Positions 2,255 to 63,412 of a stretch of DNA of 64,000 nucleotides are shown here, one piece after another. The number at the start of each line of letters is the position of its first letter. Position 1 is the stretch's first letter. Both the position numbers and the translations under genes were made by a program. This DNA is from Enterobacteria phage vB_EcoM_IME281. Under the pieces are notes generated by a model, which had not been told where the DNA came from, did not search any database, and worked only from the letters and a program-made list of their open reading frames with translations. The stretch is from sequence record MH051913. One strand, written 5' to 3'.

Positions 2255-3214
2255 ATGATGCTAGTTATTGGTTCTCGTGCACTGCACCACGCAGGTCTGA
2301 TTGAAAATAAGTATATCGAAAATTCTGATTGGGATTTCATTGCCGACCAAGGCTCATGGAACCACTTTAAAGCTCGGATGTTCGGCGCCCATGTACACGT
2401 TGACAATCCTGATGTTCAGGCTTTCAAATGTATGCATAATGGTAAAGAAACCTATTTCGAAGCTTATATCGTCCGTGCCCTGACTAATGTACGAGAAATT
2501 ACCGGTGAGCTCCAAGATGAAGACTACACCTCAAGCTATCGTCTCCTGAAATATGCTGAAAATCATATTAAAAAGGACCGTCTTACAGGTTTCTATTGGG
2601 CGACGCCTGATATCTGTCTGGCTATCAAAACCTCTCATCGTTTCCTGAAGAATAATCCGTTCTTCTTGAAAACTATGTCCCACATCAAATACCTTCGTAA
2701 TAAAGGTATCACCCTGAATGAAGAACTCCGGGAAATTATGCTGCAACGTCAAAAAGAAACGTTGAGCTATTCCCATCCTAAATTGGATGTAAACAAATCA
2801 TCGTTCTTTAATGATACCATTTATACGCTAGACCATGACTCCATCCATGAAGCAGTAGCATTGGCAGGGCGTCCTGCATATACCTTTTATATGAAGGAAG
2901 GTTCTGAAGTCATGACCTCTCGTGAGAAGTTCGAGGCTTTGCCTGAAGCTATTAAATTGGCTGGTGTGTATGAAGAAACTTGTGTCCTGGCACTAGAACG
3001 TTCACAGGTTCCTAATGACTTCAATATTTCACCATCATTAAGTTTCTATATGGCTCTTGAGAAAGTGTGTACCTCAATCACTTCAGGTTGGTTCCGTGAG
3101 TACGCCTGGGAAAACTACCAAGCTGTGGTTAATATGTACAAGACTTTAGGTGAAAACGACTACATCAAACGATTCCAAGACAACCATCATTTAATTCGTC
3201 CTTTCGAAAAATAA
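2255..3214 (+). CDS. hypothetical protein (319 aa)
   Basis: Long ORF; TGAGGAAAATATTATG initiation context; weak GS...D-x-D motif, function not assignable. Confidence 0.7.
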   Translation: MMLVIGSRALHHAGLIENKYIENSDWDFIADQGSWNHFKARMFGAHVHVDNPDVQAFKCMHNGKETYFEAYIVRALTNVREITGELQDEDYTSSYRLLKYAENHIKKDRLTGFYWATPDICLAIKTSHRFLKNNPFFLKTMSHIKYLRNKGITLNEELREIMLQRQKETLSYSHPKLDVNKSSFFNDTIYTLDHDSIHEAVALAGRPAYTFYMKEGSEVMTSREKFEALPEAIKLAGVYEETCVLALERSQVPNDFNISPSLSFYMALEKVCTSITSGWFREYAWENYQAVVNMYKTLGENDYIKRFQDNHHLIRPFEK

Positions 3215-3226
3215 TTGCACAAAACA

Positions 3227-3264
3227 GTGTACAAGGTCTATAGGTGTGATACTATAGACCTATC
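3227..3264 (+). promoter_or_regulatory. early promoter cassette (sigma70-type, PeSL-like)
   Basis: GTGTAC-N17-TG-a-TACTAT then TAGACCTATCAA box; 9-bp inverted repeat AGGTCTATA/TATAGACCT. Confidence 0.6.
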
Positions 3265-3292: not shown

Positions 3293-3508
3293 ATGAAACT
3301 TTCTAACCAAGCAATCAACATGTTAAACGAAGTTCGTGCAGCTGGTGCTAAATGCCTGATGGTTAACACTCGTGACGGTGACCTTCGTCAAGCATTTGGT
3401 GAATTGAAATCTGCTGACCTGGTTAAATGTTCAGTTGGTATTGGTAACGCACTTCGTGTATCCTTATCCCCTAAAGGTAAAATGTACTTTTCAACAAAAA
3501 GTAAGTGA
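3293..3508 (+). CDS. hypothetical protein
   Basis: ORF downstream of early promoter cassette; GGAG SD lies inside the upstream ATG so second ATG preferred. Confidence 0.55.
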   Translation: MKLSNQAINMLNEVRAAGAKCLMVNTRDGDLRQAFGELKSADLVKCSVGIGNALRVSLSPKGKMYFSTKSK

Positions 3509-3518
3509 GGAAAATATT

Positions 3519-4208: not shown

Positions 4209-4795
4209 TGGCCCTTTATGAACCTGGTTGTATGGGTATTGATACAAACTTCATCCGTCGGTCGGAAAATGCTGGAATTATTATCCCAAGTGGTGAGACT
4301 ATGATTATTAAAAAGTCCTGGCGAAATATAGATGACGGTGATGAAGGAATTTCAGCCAGTACAATAGATTGGTCAGGTTGTACTGCCGAAATGAAACAGC
4401 TTTTAATTGAGGAATATAAAATGGGCTATATCGTAAACGGCTGGCAAGCGGAACCACATAAAGAACAGACTCCAGACCCATTGATTTGTTATAGCAAAAA
4501 ATACGGCTTCCGTGCATGGAGTGATGAATACGACAAATTGGTGAGTTCTAGATTCTATGTTTGGATGGGTATATTATTTTTCCCACTCCTAGGGTTTTTC
4601 CTGACAACAGATAATGACCTGCCTATTTGTGTATTCGCTTCAGCGATGTCTGCTGCTATCTTAGGTCTTATCGCATCATTTTTATGGACATCGGTTATCG
4701 AAGTACCTTTTCGTATTTCTAAAGTTAAAAAGGTATATGATGATATCACTAAGAAAAATACATTAAACTCTTTTATTAAGGAATGTCGTAAATGA
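4208..4795 (+). CDS. hypothetical membrane protein
   Basis: 195-aa ORF with C-terminal hydrophobic segments; ATGG overlap with upstream stop. Confidence 0.65.
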   Translation: MALYEPGCMGIDTNFIRRSENAGIIIPSGETMIIKKSWRNIDDGDEGISASTIDWSGCTAEMKQLLIEEYKMGYIVNGWQAEPHKEQTPDPLICYSKKYGFRAWSDEYDKLVSSRFYVWMGILFFPLLGFFLTTDNDLPICVFASAMSAAILGLIASFLWTSVIEVPFRISKVKKVYDDITKKNTLNSFIKECRK

Positions 4796-5028
4796 GCATT
4801 GCAATTTATATTAAATCTGAGTCATGTGATTCATATCTATATTCCTATGATACCGGAACATCAGAAGAGAAAATTAAAGAAGACTTAGAAAGCGATATGG
4901 ATATGTTCTGTCCTATTGGTGACTATATGCTTCAAGTGTCTGATAGTGAAAGTCCATCATCAGAAAATAGACTTCAAATTATTATGCAAGATATTTTTAA
5001 ACAATCATGGGAACGAGACGATGGGTAA
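4792..5028 (+). CDS. hypothetical acidic protein
   Basis: 78-aa ORF, overlaps nudE start. Confidence 0.45.
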   Translation: MSIAIYIKSESCDSYLYSYDTGTSEEKIKEDLESDMDMFCPIGDYMLQVSDSESPSSENRLQIIMQDIFKQSWERDDG

Positions 5029-5470
5029 GAAAGCTAAGGAATTATCGGCAGGTATTTTATTCATGACCGTTGATAAAGAACTGGTCATGGGCCGTGTAAC
5101 AGGCTCTCGTAATCCAGAGAACATGCGTCATAAATGGGACATTCCTAAAGGTCATGTCGAACCAGGCGAAGAGCCTATTCAAGCGGCAATGCGTGAAACC
5201 GAAGAAGAGATTGGATTCACAGCATACGATCCTGCATTCCTGAAAGACCTAGGTGAGTTCAAATATTCAAGCAATAAGAATCTACATCTGTTCTTATATA
5301 CAGTGCCTGTGGAACACGAGCAGTTCAAGGATTGCAAATGTACGGCTTACCATACGTTCCCTGATGGTCGTACTATTCCTGAATTCGATGCGTTCGCCTT
5401 GATTAAACGTCCGCAATGGGAATATGTCATGGGTAAGTCGATGTTTAAGGTTTTAGATTCGCTCTTTTGA
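5021..5470 (+). CDS. nudE: Nudix hydrolase
   Basis: Nudix box GHVEPGEEPIQAAMRETEEEIGF; sits immediately upstream of lysozyme as T4 nudE does; start at MGKKAK not track start 4916. Confidence 0.85.
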   Translation: MGKKAKELSAGILFMTVDKELVMGRVTGSRNPENMRHKWDIPKGHVEPGEEPIQAAMRETEEEIGFTAYDPAFLKDLGEFKYSSNKNLHLFLYTVPVEHEQFKDCKCTAYHTFPDGRTIPEFDAFALIKRPQWEYVMGKSMFKVLDSLF

Positions 5471-5478
5471 TATAAATA
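5471..5478 (+). promoter_or_regulatory. late promoter (gp55-dependent) for lysozyme
   Basis: Exact TATAAATA 22 nt upstream of e start codon. Confidence 0.75.
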
Positions 5479-5498
5479 CCTCCTATACTCAGGAGGTA
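5477..5498 (+). promoter_or_regulatory. SD-sequestering hairpin at lysozyme translation start
   Basis: TACCTCCT-atactc-AGGAGGTA; 3' arm is the SD. Confidence 0.7.
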
Positions 5499-5500
5499 TT

Positions 5501-5995
5501 ATGGATATTTTTGATATGTTACGTCAAGACGAAGGTCTTGATTTAAATCTTTATAAAGACACTGAAGGTTATTGGACTATTGGTATTGGCCAGTTAGTTA
5601 CCAAGAACCCATCTAAAGATGTTGCTCGTGCTGAACTTGATAAGCTTATGGGCCGAGTTTGTAATGGTCGTATTACTATGGCTGAAGCCGAACAACTCTT
5701 TAACCGATCGGTTGAAAATGCTCGTAGAGCTATTCTGCGTAATCCTAAATTGAAACCTGTTTACGATGTATTGGACGAAGTTCGTCGTTGTGCTTTAATT
5801 AACATGGTCTTCCAAATGGGTGAAGCAGGTGTAGCAGGGTTCACTAACTCTTTACGTATGCTCCAACAGAAACGTTGGAACGATGCGGCAGTTAACCTGG
5901 CTCAATCCCGTTGGTATAAACAAACCCCTAATCGTGCTAAGCGCGTGATTTCAACATTTAAAACAGGTACTTGGAAAGCATATGAAAACTTATAA
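5501..5995 (+). CDS. e: endolysin (T4 lysozyme)
   Basis: 164 aa, collinear with T4 lysozyme ([13 protein letters not shown]...[10 protein letters not shown]); late promoter and SD hairpin upstream. Confidence 0.97.
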
Positions 5996-6380
5996 TGAAT
6001 TTATCGCAGAGAATGTAGTTCCTGCATCTAAAGAACTTCTGGCGATGTTTGAATCAGAAGAATTCACCGAAGAACTGAACGAGAACCTGACCCAGGCCAC
6101 TCCTCAGGTTATTCGCGTTCGTAATGCCCTTCAGACTGGCATGCAGGCTCGTGTATCTAAGACTATGAAGCTGGCATTCACTACTTCTAAGAACGAAGAC
6201 TATGGCGATGGTATCGCTATGAACACCGGACAGTATTATGTTGAGTGGAATGGCGAAACCGGTACTGCTAAGATTCGTCAGACACGTGCCGCTGGTGGCA
6301 AAATGCTGGACGTTAAATTGAACGTTAAAGAGAAAGACGTCGCAGCTTTGTTTAAGAATTGGATGAAAACTTACAAATAA
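5982..6380 (+). CDS. internal (capsid-packaged) protein with N-terminal capsid targeting sequence
   Basis: Begins [10 protein letters not shown], the CTS seen on T4 internal proteins; position between e and denV. Confidence 0.7.
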
Positions 6381-59079: not shown

Positions 59080-59114
59080 ATGGATTATAAACCTTTAACC
59101 AAGAGAGAAAAATT

Positions 59115-59681
59115 ATGATTACTATTTCCGATATCGGCAGTATCGTTCGTGTATCCAAAAAGTCTCGTTCAAAAGCTGCGGGCAGTTTAGTTGAAGTTGT
59201 TAGCATCCAACTTAAAGAAGGTGACAGTGAAGAAAATTATGAAGTAAAAGTTCGTATCATTCCTAAAAATCGCCAGACTGAAACTCAATTCGGTTATGTG
59301 CGTGCTAAATTCTTGGAATCGACTGAATTTACCGGGTACATCGCTCCTGTAGTTGAAGAAGTTGAATCCCATGATGGGTATGTATGTGAAAGCAATGATA
59401 TCCGTGGCGTAGTAGCTCAAGACGTTGAAACTATCGACCAGTCCCATGTTGGCGTTGATTTCAAATGGAAATTAGGTCGAGGAGTGTGTTTTAATACTCC
59501 TAAACCGTTCAAATATGTTGACGAACCTTTTGGTACTTACGAAACCAGTAGCATGTCTGGTTACATCACAGACCAGTGGGTTGAAGGTGGCGTTAAGCTC
59601 TATAACATCGTGTTCCTTGGAACCTTTAAGGTTGTTCCTGAAAGCTTTATTGTTGAATATGCTAACATTCACCGTGCATAA
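59115..59681 (+). CDS. hypothetical protein, paralog pair member B
   Basis: 188-aa ORF; C-terminal ITDQWVEGGVKLYNIVF matches member A. Confidence 0.55.
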   Translation: MITISDIGSIVRVSKKSRSKAAGSLVEVVSIQLKEGDSEENYEVKVRIIPKNRQTETQFGYVRAKFLESTEFTGYIAPVVEEVESHDGYVCESNDIRGVVAQDVETIDQSHVGVDFKWKLGRGVCFNTPKPFKYVDEPFGTYETSSMSGYITDQWVEGGVKLYNIVFLGTFKVVPESFIVEYANIHRA

Positions 59682-59974: not shown

Positions 59975-60404
59975 TCAAGAACTCGAATTTGAAAAAGGTA
60001 AATGGTACTATTTTAAAGATGACGCTGCAGAAGCTGAATTCCGTAAGCTGAATGCCCATAATATTAGGAATCCTGATAATTCTAGCTTAGCCGATATTAT
60101 TGTCAATGCTGAAGGGTTTTGCCCTGTTAGATTAGCGGCAGGTTATGTGATGAACGTGGACTTGGCTTATGGTGATAACATTGATATGGTTTTATATCCA
60201 AGCGAGCGTAAATTCTTTACGGAAATGGTTGTAGTTGACAGTGAAGACGAATGGGCCGAAGATGGTTTTTCTGAAGACGAAGACCAGTCTGAAGATGCAG
60301 CCCCATCTGAACCGAGTGATTTCCCTTTGACTAAAATCACTATCTCTAATAATTCTGAAGCCTGGACTGTTTACCAGATGCTGAAAGCGCACTTTAAGGA
60401 ATAA
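59967..60404 (+). CDS. hypothetical acidic protein
   Basis: ORF from MLNQELEF. Confidence 0.5.
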   Translation: MLNQELEFEKGKWYYFKDDAAEAEFRKLNAHNIRNPDNSSLADIIVNAEGFCPVRLAAGYVMNVDLAYGDNIDMVLYPSERKFFTEMVVVDSEDEWAEDGFSEDEDQSEDAAPSEPSDFPLTKITISNNSEAWTVYQMLKAHFKE

Positions 60405-60405
60405 T

Positions 60406-60582
60406 ATGCCACTTTATGATTACAAATGCCAATCCGAAGACTGTGCAAAAGAATACGAAAAAATCAAGAAAATCTCTGAAAGAGATAATGATGTTTGCCC
60501 TGATTGCCATCGGCCGGCTGTTCGGCTAGTTTCAGCTCCTAAACATGTTAACGGCGGGTTCTATGACCTGCTAACTAAGTGA
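60406..60582 (+). CDS. FmdB-family zinc-ribbon protein
   Basis: MPLYDYKCQSEDCAKEYE...CPDCHRP pattern. Confidence 0.55.
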   Translation: MPLYDYKCQSEDCAKEYEKIKKISERDNDVCPDCHRPAVRLVSAPKHVNGGFYDLLTK

Positions 60583-60588
60583 GAAATT

Positions 60589-60849
60589 ATGAAATATGTT
60601 AATCGTTCTATTGCGGCTCTTGTACTAGCAGTTTCGTTGGTTGGTTGTACTGATGCTGATAATGCTGTTAAAGTTTTGAATGCAAACGGGTTCGATCAGG
60701 TCCAAATCACAGGTTATAGCTTGTTTGGATGTTCTGAAGATGACTTCCAACGTACAGGATTCATTGCTGTAGGTCCTACAGGTAAAACTGTTAAGGGTAC
60801 CGTGTGCTCAGGATTACTGTTTAAAAACTCTACTATTCGATTCGAATAA
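60589..60849 (+). CDS. predicted lipoprotein
   Basis: Signal peptide with lipobox LVGC; terminator follows. Confidence 0.55.
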   Translation: MKYVNRSIAALVLAVSLVGCTDADNAVKVLNANGFDQVQITGYSLFGCSEDDFQRTGFIAVGPTGKTVKGTVCSGLLFKNSTIRFE

Positions 60850-60868
60850 GGGCTTCGGCCCTTTTTTT
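60849..60868 (+). terminator. intrinsic terminator
   Basis: GGGC-UUCG-GCCC then TTTTTTT. Confidence 0.7.
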
Positions 60869-60898
60869 GTTTACGCTCCAATAAAGCCATGATATAAT
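60869..60898 (+). promoter_or_regulatory. early promoter upstream of GIY-YIG endonuclease
   Basis: GTTTAC-N18-TATAAT with TG. Confidence 0.6.
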
Positions 60899-60921
60899 CT
60901 TCATAAATTAAAGGAGGATGT

Positions 60922-61599
60922 ATGTTTATAGTTTACTTGACGATTTATTCCGGAGACAAATTACCTCCATTTTATATAGGTTCGACTAGCCTAGAAAAAC
61001 ATTTAAACGGATACCACGGCTCCGTAAAATCTAAAAAGTACCAAGAGATTTACAAGTCTGAATTGGCTGCCCATCCTGAGCTTTTCGATAGTTTGATAGT
61101 TGAAGAATTCGAGACAAGAGAAGAAGCTACTAAAGCGGAGTATAAGTATCAAGTCCTTAATAATGCGGCTAAATCTGATTTATTTTTTAATAGAGCAACT
61201 GCAGCACCTAAAGGATTTTTCGGCTCCGACGTTAGTAAAGAAAACAATCCTTTCTTTAACAAACATCATTCTCATGAAACTATAAAAATCCAATCAGGCC
61301 TTAAATTAGGTGAACTTAACCCTATGTATGGGATTAAACGCCCTGAACATTCCAAAGCAATGGCTAAAGAAAACAACCCTTTCTTTGGTAAGAAACATAC
61401 AGACGAGGCCTTAATCAAATGCGGTCTTAAAAATCGTAAAAGCCCTGTTTGGGAATATGAATCCGCTTTAGAAGATTTATGGTTAGAATTAGATAAACCT
61501 AAACTGGCTAAATTCATGAAAGAAAGTATTAAACGTGGATTTCCTGAAGGGTCCTATAAAAATATTTTAAAACAATTCGAGAGAAAACATAATGATTGA
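60922..61599 (+). CDS. GIY-YIG homing endonuclease (Seg-like) with NUMOD3-type repeats
   Basis: GIY-YIG core VYLTIYSGDKLPPFYIGST; three NP[FM][FY]GK repeats. Confidence 0.85.
   Translation: MFIVYLTIYSGDKLPPFYIGSTSLEKHLNGYHGSVKSKKYQEIYKSELAAHPELFDSLIVEEFETREEATKAEYKYQVLNNAAKSDLFFNRATAAPKGFFGSDVSKENNPFFNKHHSHETIKIQSGLKLGELNPMYGIKRPEHSKAMAKENNPFFGKKHTDEALIKCGLKNRKSPVWEYESALEDLWLELDKPKLAKFMKESIKRGFPEGSYKNILKQFERKHND
60922..61599 (+). mobile_element. free-standing GIY-YIG homing endonuclease gene abutting gene 39
   Basis: Own early promoter; 3' end overlaps start of topoisomerase gene by 8 nt. Confidence 0.65.
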
Positions 61600-63412
61600 T
61601 AATAAAATTGAAATGCTTTCAGATAAGGAACACGTTCTTAAGCGTCCTGGAATGTACATCGGAAGTGTATCATTTGAAGACCATGAACGATTTCTTTTCG
61701 GCGAGTTTACCAAAGTACGGTATGTAGCGGGTGTTCTTAAATTAGTTGATGAAATCATCGATAACTCAGTTGATGAAGCTATTCGTACTAATTTTAAGTT
61801 TGCCAACAAAATTTCAGTAAGCATTGATTTAAGTTCTAATAAGGTTACTGTAGAAGATAATGGCCGTGGTATTCCTCAAGCTCTAGTGGTTACTCCTGAA
61901 GGTGAAGAAATCCCAGGACCCGTCGCGGCTTGGACAAAAACCAAGGCAGGCGGTAACTTTGGTGATGACTCTGAACGTGTTACCGGTGGTCAAAACGGTG
62001 TCGGTTCCAGTTTAACAAATATATTCTCTGTGATGTTTACAGGCACAACTTCTGATGGTAAATCTGAACTTATTGTTAACTGCTCTAATAACGCTGAAAA
62101 CGTTTCTTGGAAATCAAAGCCATCTAAAACTAATGGAACCAAAGTAGAATTTGTACCTGATTTTAGCCACTTTGAAATGAACCAATTTGAAAAAATTTAT
62201 CAAGATATTACCATTGACCGACTTCAAACCTTAGCAGTCATTTATCCTGATATTGAATTTAAATTTAATGGTAAGAAAATCCAAGGGTCGTTTAAAAAAT
62301 ACGCCAAACAGTTCGACGAAGAGTGCATTATCCAAGAACAGGACAATTGTTCGATATCTATAGGACGCTCTCCTGATGGATTCCGACAATTAACGTACGT
62401 GAACAATATTCATACTAAAAACGGTGGTCACCACGTTGAATGTGTTATGGATGATATTTGTGACGAGCTTATCCCACAAATTAAGCGTAAGTTTAAAATT
62501 GAAGTAACCAAAGCCCGTATTAAAGAATGTTTAACGATGCTGATGTTTGTGCGAAGCATGAAAAATATGCGATTCGATTCCCAGACTAAAGAACGTCTAA
62601 CATCGCCGTATGGTGAAATTCGTTCGCATATTCAGTTAGATTCTAAAAAACTAGCTAAATCCATATTAGCTAATGAAGCTGTGTTGATGCCTATTATTGA
62701 GGCTGCATTAGCACGTAAGCTCGCTGCTGAAAAGGCTGCCGAAACAAAAGCTGCTAAGAAAGCTTTGAAAGCCAAGGTCCATAAGCATATTAAAGCCAAT
62801 ATGTATGGCAAAGATGCTGATACGACTTTATTCCTTACGGAAGGTGATTCTGCAATGGGTCCTTTCATTGAAGTTCGTAATAAAGACCTCCAAGGTGGTT
62901 ATCCGTTACGCGGAAAGGTTATGAATACCTGGGGTATGACTGCTGCCGATATCATGAAGAACAAAGAATTGTTTGATATCTGTGCAATCACTGGACTGGT
63001 TATTGGTGAACCTGCAGATAAAACCAACTATCGTAATATCGCTATCATGACTGACGCCGATGTGGATGGTACTGGTTCGATTTATCCTTCGTTATTAGCT
63101 TTCTTTAGTCAGTGGCCGGAATTGTTTGAACAGGGACGAATTCGTTTCTGTAAGACTCCTGTAATCATTGCTCAGGTTGGTAAAGAACAGGAATGGTTCT
63201 ATGATGTACCTAGTTATACCAAAGCTAAGGACTCTCTACCTAAGCATTCTATTCGTTATATTAAAGGACTCGGTTCTCTTGAGAAGGCTGAATACCGTCG
63301 AATGATTCAAGACCCTAAATTCGATGTAGTTCAATTACCTGAAGATTGGAAAGACCAGTTCGAAATGCTCCTTGGAAACGACCCACAGCTGCGTAAGGCT
63401 TGGATGTCATAA
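61592..63412 (+). CDS. 39: DNA topoisomerase II large subunit (gp39 fused with gp60 region; GyrB-like ATPase + TOPRIM)
   Basis: GHKL ATPase motifs (EDNGRGIP, GGQNGVGSS), TOPRIM EGDSA; 606 aa continuous ORF. Confidence 0.93.
   Translation: MIDNKIEMLSDKEHVLKRPGMYIGSVSFEDHERFLFGEFTKVRYVAGVLKLVDEIIDNSVDEAIRTNFKFANKISVSIDLSSNKVTVEDNGRGIPQALVVTPEGEEIPGPVAAWTKTKAGGNFGDDSERVTGGQNGVGSSLTNIFSVMFTGTTSDGKSELIVNCSNNAENVSWKSKPSKTNGTKVEFVPDFSHFEMNQFEKIYQDITIDRLQTLAVIYPDIEFKFNGKKIQGSFKKYAKQFDEECIIQEQDNCSISIGRSPDGFRQLTYVNNIHTKNGGHHVECVMDDICDELIPQIKRKFKIEVTKARIKECLTMLMFVRSMKNMRFDSQTKERLTSPYGEIRSHIQLDSKKLAKSILANEAVLMPIIEAALARKLAAEKAAETKAAKKALKAKVHKHIKANMYGKDADTTLFLTEGDSAMGPFIEVRNKDLQGGYPLRGKVMNTWGMTAADIMKNKELFDICAITGLVIGEPADKTNYRNIAIMTDADVDGTGSIYPSLLAFFSQWPELFEQGRIRFCKTPVIIAQVGKEQEWFYDVPSYTKAKDSLPKHSIRYIKGLGSLEKAEYRRMIQDPKFDVVQLPEDWKDQFEMLLGNDPQLRKAWMS

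Follow-up and report, generated by a model that had tools for sequence, protein, structure and literature searches.

A stretch of 64,000 nucleotides (nt) from Enterobacteria phage vB_EcoM_IME281 (record MH051913), hereafter the window, carries a candidate homing endonuclease gene directly before the topoisomerase gene 39. The window is 100% identical to Escherichia phage EcWhh-1 (MH791409, Dhakavirus, JS98-like), and this name is used in the comparisons below. The endonuclease open reading frame (ORF; 60922-61599, + strand) is intact in the program-made ORF list, with an ATG start and 225 amino acids (aa), and is annotated in MH791409 as 'hypothetical protein'. Its TGA stop codon (61597-61599) lies within an 8-nt overlap (ATGATTGA) with gene 39, whose ATG is at 61592; the endonuclease ends in ...CAT AAT GAT TGA and gene 39 begins with ATG ATT GAT AAT. 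Thus, a GIY-YIG ORF ending 8 nt inside gene 39, as claimed in an earlier note on this DNA (the original prediction), is what the locus contains. Gene 39 itself (61592-63412, + strand) encodes a full-length topoisomerase II large subunit of 606 aa, of the T2 type in which genes 39 and 60 are fused; its product matches PHROG 543 over aa 1-606 with an expectation value (E) of 1e-280 and displays the Pfam domains DNA_gyraseB, HATPase_c (GHKL ATPase) and Toprim. The label 'N-terminal region' given to this full-length 606-aa product in EcWhh-1 is an annotation error. Comparative sequence data present the locus as what appears to be a common type of homing event, caught in nature in a very clean form, in which ~1.1 kb of foreign gene 39 was co-converted.

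Structure modelling and remote homology settle the predicted protein as a member of the GIY-YIG family related to SegA of T4. Its AlphaFold2 model, built on 34 homologs, reaches a predicted local distance difference test score (pLDDT) of 89.6 and contains the GIY-YIG alpha/beta fold, a three-stranded sheet with flanking helices. Fold searches match the catalytic domain of I-TevI, UvrC, Eco29kI, T4 EndoII and Slx1. Alignment with T4 SegA by hhalign extends from the YIG motif to the C-terminus (179 columns, probability 96%, E 4.9e-9), and the C-terminal domain is related both to SegA (BLASTP, E 6e-6) and to the C-terminal domain of SegF (E 1e-3). NUMOD3 is recognized by Pfam in two stretches (E 4.7e-11). 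The original prediction had named a GIY-YIG motif and three NP[FM][FY]GK repeats; the motif is found at aa 4-22 (VYLTIYSGDKLPPFYIGST) and three NP-aromatic repeats exist (NPFFNK, NPMYGI and NPFFGK), of which only the last fits the exact pattern. The GIY-YIG call from the endonuclease sequence alone is weak. The Pfam GIY-YIG model PF01541 matches only 10 of the 34 homologs at E<0.01, and a precomputed PF01541 match is present in none of the 120 homologs listed. For the catalytic domain, neither phmmer nor the 34-sequence profile returned a match to I-TevI or other solved GIY-YIG domains; in profile searches of solved structures the NUMOD3 segment alone was aligned, to the segment RSGENNSFFNHKHS of the I-TevI DNA-binding domain. 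The NCBIfam match, to a group I intron endonuclease model, is sub-threshold (26.6 vs 56 bits). The label 'HNH endonuclease', used in RefSeq and for PHROG 10820, is wrong, as no HNH family is detected in Pfam at E<=1 and the fold is GIY-YIG. Phages TG1, KMI12, Mexia, Nispero and Merci are already labelled in GenBank as carrying a GIY-YIG homing endonuclease; elsewhere the present assignment corrects widespread 'HNH endonuclease' and 'hypothetical protein' labels.

Thirteen positions are invariant across the 34 diverse homologs, namely Y5, Y9, G11, P15, Y18, G20, S21, Y31, G33, S37, E47, E73 and N90. They include the core of the GIY...YIG signature, which reads I-V-Y5 ... Y18-I-G20 (Y5, Y18 and G20 invariant). 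By position and order of secondary structures, E73 (in the predicted helix 66-79) and N90 (in the loop after the helix) may be equated with the metal-binding Glu E75 and the structural Asn N90 of I-TevI, a correspondence that relies on motif order and predicted secondary structure, without residue-level structural alignment. Ratios of nonsynonymous to synonymous substitution rates (dN/dS) among seven orthologs are 0.09-0.37, with dS saturated, and drop to 0.04-0.3 for the nuclease domain (aa 1-100). The endonuclease, nuclease domain included, is therefore maintained by selection. On these grounds we infer a free-standing SegA-like GIY-YIG homing enzyme that probably has nuclease activity.

Full-length orthologs, 58-100% identical at the aa level, were found by tblastn in 32 records of the phage collection, covering at least six lineages, and in all 32 the gene is located directly upstream of gene 39. 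Carriers are EcWhh-1 and Bp7 in Dhakavirus, HX01, JM10, G2285 and AV109/114/115/116/118 in Mosigvirus, TG1 in Tegunavirus, PM2 in Bragavirus, and pKp20 with ten others in Jiaodavirus (11 full-coverage matches), besides further Providencia, Enterobacter and Klebsiella phages. They constitute a minority within each genus (11 of ~196 records in the Mosigvirus range), and the slot before gene 39 is devoid of the endonuclease in JS98, FB, SF, phiR1-RT, Mineola and T4. Orthologs likewise overlap gene 39, by 8 nt (Bp7, HX01, TG1), 11 nt (PM2) or 14 nt (pKp20). In Klebsiella phage Biddle_MM4 (retrieved locus 3165-3230), gene 39 has a GTG start that overlaps the endonuclease stop (AGTGATTAA); the topoisomerase start annotated there is misplaced by ~60 nt in the downstream direction. 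The nuclease domain alone (aa 2-127, ~57% identity) occurs at another locus in many Tequatroviruses, linked to a different C-terminus and mostly annotated 'HNH endonuclease' (e.g. NC_054933 41053-41448 and MZ501106 110218-110613); this is the usual modular shuffling of such enzymes.

Comparing the region upstream of gene 39 among relatives, a check proposed with the original prediction, reveals a present/absent polymorphism of the endonuclease and divergent tracts in four genera. The comparison relies on four near-isogenic pairs with and without the gene (EcWhh-1/JS98, HX01/SF, TG1/phiR1-RT and pKp20/Mineola). Across the 8 kb compared, EcWhh-1 matches JS98 at 98-100% identity outside a patch from 60666 to 62737, within which identity falls to 56-85%. 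This patch takes in two-thirds of gene 39.1 (its 3' part), then the promoter region and the endonuclease, and finally nt 1-1146 of gene 39 (56-78% identical), the remainder of gene 39 being 98-100% identical. In the Mosigvirus pair HX01/SF, with flanks that are 97-100% identical, the divergent tract begins with the endonuclease and ends at nt 1146 of gene 39, and the last differences occur at nt 1143 and 1146, exactly as in EcWhh-1/JS98. Tracts that also start at the endonuclease extend to nt ~1100-1160 of gene 39 in the Tegunavirus pair TG1/phiR1-RT and to nt ~627 in the Jiaodavirus pair pKp20/Mineola. No phage of the collection qualifies as donor of the EcWhh-1 patch, the best matches being ~80-84% for gene 39 and 89% for the left flank in 39.1, to the Gaprivervirus VR5. 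The patch is interpreted as a probable tract of homing and co-conversion. All four natural tracts include the endonuclease and appear to fit homing, a fit that does not by itself prove directionality or dependence on the nuclease. Collectively, the homology with SegA, the fold, the sporadic distribution and the co-conversion-like tracts bear out the proposal of a Seg-like free-standing homing endonuclease.

What is co-inherited with the endonuclease is a distinct allele of the 5' part of gene 39. Gp39 with a type A N-terminus (MIKNEIK.LSD...KRSGMYIGS) is encoded by T4 and by all endonuclease-free partners of the four pairs, and gp39 with a type B N-terminus (MI[DQ]N[KN]I[EQK][MI]L[ST]...[KR]RP[GA]MYIGS) by six of the seven carriers examined; the exception is Biddle_MM4, with type-A-like IKNEI first codons (nt 4-18). 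The type B module contains the canonical, GyrB-like motif KRPGMYIG, which reads KRSGMYIG in T4-type alleles. Over aa 1-370, gp39 groups by endonuclease, with 80-88% identity among the Dhakavirus, Mosigvirus and Tegunavirus carriers and ~70% to non-carriers of the same genus. The pKp20 and PM2 proteins are 62-71% identical to those carriers over this region, consistent with the shorter tract of pKp20. Over aa 385-515, gp39 groups by genus, with 100% identity between EcWhh-1 and JS98 and between HX01 and SF. Within Mosigvirus, every type B module is accompanied by the endonuclease (11 records at >=98% identity, 185 at <=80%); identities are strictly bimodal, and no partial type B module was found in endonuclease-free Mosigviruses.

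The explanation favoured here, with a probability of about 0.7, is that a SegA-like homing endonuclease resides in the slot between genes 39.1 and 39 and co-converts the 5' part of gene 39, and that EcWhh-1 arose when this happened to a JS98-like genome. During mixed infection with an endonuclease-free relative, the enzyme would cut both strands of the relative's genome, with the initial ~630 nt of gene 39 or the short intergenic region upstream of it as the most likely place, and the break would be repaired off the endonuclease-carrying genome. Because the alleles are only ~65-75% identical over the first ~1.1 kb, the endonuclease and the donor 5' part of gene 39 would be copied together. The type B module presumably has no cleavable site, which would confer immunity. 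The insertion would have displaced the promoter and ribosome-binding region of gene 39, now probably transcribed from the promoter before the endonuclease and translated from the start that overlaps the endonuclease stop. Such reliance on endonuclease-linked signals would make loss of the element costly.

The location of the target most likely lies in the 5' part of gene 39 or in the short intergenic region, as comparison of the tracts suggests. The stretch common to the four divergent tracts extends from the endonuclease to nt ~627 of gene 39; a repair tract should include the break, and therefore this common stretch, i.e. the intergenic region with the first ~630 nt of gene 39, would mark the target, with the caveat that orthologs down to 58% identity may differ in specificity. 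Six positions of gene 39 (nt 43, 55, 56, 339, 343 and 593) do not vary among five type A alleles but differ from them in every one of the seven carriers. The group at nt 43-56 corresponds to IKKRSG codons in type A vs V/C-x-x-R-P-G in type B and is a possible pointer to the target, to be taken as a lead, not a result. The very first codons of gene 39 are an unreliable candidate, because Biddle_MM4 is type-A-like at nt 4-18 despite its endonuclease. The original prediction had placed the target near the 5' end of gene 39. The direction is supported by the tracts and the fixed differences; a cleavage site did not emerge from the computations.

Several points weigh against the homing explanation. 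The PF01541 score of the endonuclease is 20.2 bits (E 7.6e-4), below the gathering score of 22.6. The canonical GIY-YIG Arg (I-TevI R27, UvrC R39) has no conserved counterpart in the 34 homologs, in which position 26 is K/R in ~28 of 34 and N/A in some, and position 27 is hydrophobic or His. The literature searched contains no biochemical or genetic test of the endonuclease. The intersection argument for the target is only suggestive, the tract ends having perhaps been reshaped by later recombination. Linkage between the endonuclease and type B is not absolute, since vB_EcoM_FB, a Bp7-like Dhakavirus, has a type B gene 39 without the endonuclease, and Gapriverviruses have one beside a different, Endo VII-type ORF. 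Finally, type B alleles from different genera are 88% identical in aa, the same as type A alleles (88%). This equal divergence implies that the intergenus transfers are not recent and that the cassette lineage is old, although individual invasions such as those in EcWhh-1 and HX01 are recent. FB represents either the uninvaded type B state or loss of the element by recombination with an empty allele; its locus (retrieved locus 2963-3113) has a JS98-type patch over the end of 39.1 and the intergenic region, joining type B exactly at ATGATT.

Part of these points would suit an ORF that is a passenger or relic, inactive or repurposed (e.g. as a DNA-binding regulator of gene 39), with patches due to ordinary recombination and type B perhaps selected. 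The missing Arg and the sub-threshold Pfam score point that way, as do the type B alleles without this endonuclease in FB and Gapriverviruses and the mosaicism of T4-like genomes elsewhere (e.g. the motB patch at 59100-59300), and dependence of gene 39 on signals in or next to the ORF could alone retain it. This alternative is nevertheless unlikely. SegA shows the same deviation, its residues aligned by hhalign to the canonical-Arg region being D-D-L, and is an active site-specific endonuclease according to the mention of Sharma & Hinton 1994 in PMC2988022. The missing Arg therefore does not refute activity, and the disrupted catalytic residues that the original prediction had counted as adverse amount here to an unconserved Arg that active SegA lacks as well, which is no meaningful refutation. 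Moreover, the nuclease domain is under strong purifying selection and its putative active-site Tyr, Glu and Asn are invariant, the pattern of endonuclease plus flank repeats in four genera and always starts at the endonuclease, and the Mosigvirus type B module never occurs without the endonuclease. A homing enzyme could also cut far from its own gene, within the highly conserved MPIIEAALARKLAAEKAAETKAAKKA linker that gene 39 encodes at nt ~1100-1220, some 1.1-1.2 kb downstream, with one-sided co-conversion towards the endonuclease. Distant cleavage is on record for free-standing endonucleases (PMC2988022), with SegG and MobE as a model, and MPIIEAALARKLAAEKAAETKAAKKA, without variation in the proteins of the ten phages compared, is of the type preferred by homing endonucleases. 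The right boundary at nt 1143/1146 is identical in two independent genus pairs, EcWhh-1/JS98 and HX01/SF, and that of TG1/phiR1-RT (~nt 1100-1160) falls near the proposed site. However, the Jiaodavirus tract ends at nt ~627 and leaves nt 1100-1220 outside, and the shared boundary has a simpler reason in that gene 39 from nt ~1096 onward is the first stretch where A and B are similar enough to recombine. Distant cutting thus appears improbable, and the homing explanation with a break near the endonuclease is preferred. It is tempting to go further and to see in the 39.1/39 slot a long-lived 'endonuclease plus cargo' cassette, with unrelated endonucleases (the GIY-YIG enzyme here, an Endo VII-type ORF in Gapriverviruses) each driving a complete alternative ATPase-transducer module of an essential type II topoisomerase across many genera of T4-like phages, and type B, in view of its KRPGMYIG motif, being perhaps functionally different and adaptive; the odds of this proposal seem low. 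If true, the endonuclease would spread an adaptive domain swap, not a neutral immune allele, and a host defence or an inhibitor, for example, may affect type B differently.

The variable slot is delimited on the left by a terminator hairpin and on the right by the gene 39 ATG. The hairpin (fold -9.3 kcal/mol, z = -2.7) is invariant in an alignment of EcWhh-1, JS98, Bp7 and HX01, thus in phages with and without the endonuclease. In the empty slot of JS98, genes 39.1 and 39 are spaced by 66 nt without an endonuclease ORF, and this spacer holds TATGCTTTA-N12-TAATAT, which fits a MotA-box middle promoter of the T4 kind, as well as the Shine-Dalgarno sequence of gene 39. An early-type promoter, the endonuclease Shine-Dalgarno sequence and the ORF stand in place of both in EcWhh-1. 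The pattern GTTTAC-N16-19-TATAAT occurs five times in the window vs 0.12 expected, always on the + strand (19948, 22405, 25677, 59044 and 60869). It is a genuine recurrent signal class of the T4-early type, probably the early promoter class of the phage. The copy before the endonuclease (60869-60898), a putative promoter by its sequence, arrived with the inserted DNA and took the place of the middle promoter of the empty allele; segment 60867-60921 has no match in any other phage record. Gene 39 must also use this promoter, because it is the only recognisable one between the upstream terminator and gene 39. In HX01, the endonuclease is preceded by the middle promoter from which gene 39 is served in endonuclease-free SF, so that not all copies of the element have a promoter of their own. 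Thus, of the early promoter that the endonuclease had been predicted to own, the promoter-like site is real and the exclusive ownership is not.

A purine-rich GAGAG(A/G), 7-9 nt 5' of the gene 39 ATG and within the FER codons of the endonuclease, is conserved, with equivalents in Bp7, HX01, PM2, TG1 and pKp20. Neither ribosome-binding site is sequestered, as no RNA structure stabler than in shuffled sequence was found around either of them, and Rfam gives no match in 60300-62000 at E<=1. A hairpin masking the ribosome-binding site, as in some T4 endonuclease mRNAs, was considered as well and is unsupported at either site. Translation of gene 39 by termination-reinitiation coupling is possible, but the exposed Shine-Dalgarno-like motif before gene 39 makes independent initiation equally plausible. 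Coupling of topoisomerase expression to endonuclease translation, as originally stated, is thus not upheld, given the conserved GAGAG(A/G) and the lack of sequestering structure. Starts of the endonuclease differ among phages. In Bp7, HX01, TG1 and pKp20 (retrieved loci 3480-3515, 2585-2612, 2970-2998 and 2960-2998, respectively), the ATG follows a -10-like hexamer by 6-7 nt without a Shine-Dalgarno sequence, a leaderless-like arrangement; EcWhh-1 and PM2 share the N-terminus MFIVYL and a leader that contains a strong Shine-Dalgarno sequence. Orthologous endonucleases may thus be expressed by two different strategies.

Other ORFs also occupy the 39.1/39 slot. The Gaprivervirus VR26 (retrieved locus 1736-2494) has an unrelated 252-aa ORF with an Endonuclease VII domain (PF02945, E 5e-18), a putative homing endonuclease, in the same place beside a type B gene 39, and the slot is therefore a hotspot for different endonuclease families; this sharing can be likened to the mutual replacement of segH/mobC and hef/mobE, as cited in bioRxiv 10.1101/2022.08.31.505936. 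In Mineola, an endonuclease-free Jiaodavirus (retrieved locus 1511-1879), the slot holds an unrelated 122-aa ORF of unknown function.

Among known systems, SegA is the closest. Homologous over ~180 columns, similar in length (221 vs 225 aa) and free-standing between conserved genes, it shares with the endonuclease a Seg-type GIY-YIG layout with G-Y-(H/M)-G-S, no canonical Arg, NUMOD3-like repeats and a C-terminal helix-turn-helix (HTH; GFP..SY). The two differ in sequence (~25% identity), in locus (between uvsX and beta-gt in T4), presumably in target (uvsX for SegA) and in that activity is proven for SegA and predicted for the endonuclease. Displacement of promoters, marker exclusion and co-conversion are all established effects of Seg and Mob genes (PMC2988022). 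SegG beside gene 32 and SegF beside gene 56, examples of localized marker exclusion with co-conversion, likewise adjoin an essential or conserved gene of DNA metabolism, are thought to cut in the neighbouring gene of relatives, and have co-inherited flanking alleles and entangled expression signals of the neighbour (PMC2988022); segF overlaps gene 56 by 11 nt, compared with 8 nt here. Here, by contrast, the endonuclease precedes the essential gene and overlaps the start codon of that gene, a module of ~1.1 kb with the size of a whole domain is co-inherited, and the evidence comes from natural recombinants in four genera, not from crosses. The MobA/gene 39-60 cassette of T4 also targets the topoisomerase large-subunit gene (bioRxiv 10.1101/2022.08.31.505936). 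MobA, however, is an HNH enzyme inserted in the 3' part of the gene (nt ~1400), where it splits the gene and brings a bypass element, whereas the GIY-YIG endonuclease stands before gene 39 and leaves it intact. A second endonuclease can flank gene 39, as in AV109 (below), or split it, as in Proteus phage PM2, which carries both elements, a mobA-like gene (retrieved locus 5202-6017) splitting 39/60 besides the upstream GIY-YIG gene. I-TevI is the best structural match of the N-terminal domain, its DNA-binding segment RSGENNSFFNHKHS aligns with the NUMOD3 repeat, and it has the modular order nuclease-linker-HTH in common with the endonuclease, which is not intron-encoded and has neither a zinc finger nor a conserved R27; similarity of the catalytic domains is too low for profile detection.

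In the literature searched, there is no description of this endonuclease or of a GIY-YIG gene upstream of gene 39. The analysis adds an uncharacterised Seg-family member, at a locus outside the T4 literature searched, to the catalogue of T4-like mobile elements. Its main value lies in unusually clean natural recombinants, near-isogenic pairs in which a homing event can be read at single-nucleotide resolution, and in a cargo that is a whole domain module of an essential enzyme. A selfish nuclease can, it seems, move a segment the size of a domain, taken from an essential replication enzyme, between phage genera. For specialists this is expected behaviour of Seg/Mob elements and opens no new question.

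Features of the endonuclease/gene 39 locus in the window (1-based positions)
Feature	Position	Strand	Basis or remark
Intrinsic terminator hairpin GGGCUUCGGCCC with U-run	60848..60863	+	terminator scan; directly after the gene 39.1 stop
Sigma-70/T4-early-like promoter match GTTTAC-N18-(TG)A-TATAAT	60869..60898	+	10/12 consensus matches plus TG
Endonuclease Shine-Dalgarno AAGGAGG	60911..60917	+	strong; 4 nt 5' of the ATG; read from sequence
GIY-YIG domain	60922-61221 (~aa 1-100)	+	in endonuclease ORF
NUMOD3 repeats	61234-61416 (~aa 105-165)	+	in endonuclease ORF
C-terminal three-helix (HTH-like) DNA-binding domain	61435-61596 (~aa 172-225)	+	in endonuclease ORF
Gene 39 Shine-Dalgarno-like GAGAGA	61579..61584	+	7 nt 5' of the gene 39 ATG, within endonuclease F-E-R codons
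Overlap of endonuclease stop and gene 39 start codon ATGATTGA	61592..61599	+	8 nt
Type B 5' module of gene 39 (nt 1-1146), ATPase and transducer domains	61592..62737	+	co-inherited with the endonuclease
Recombinant patch relative to JS98, 2.07 kb	60666..62737	+	sliding identity, mismatch positions

Two minor observations concern neighbouring sequences. Inside motB, at 59100-59300 of the window, EcWhh-1 is 74-86% identical to JS98 but 92-96% identical to Bp7, with no endonuclease nearby; this patch is ordinary mosaicism. In AV109 (retrieved locus 4702-5499), a 265-aa NUMOD3 ORF with a weak HNH_4 match starts at the gene 39 stop.

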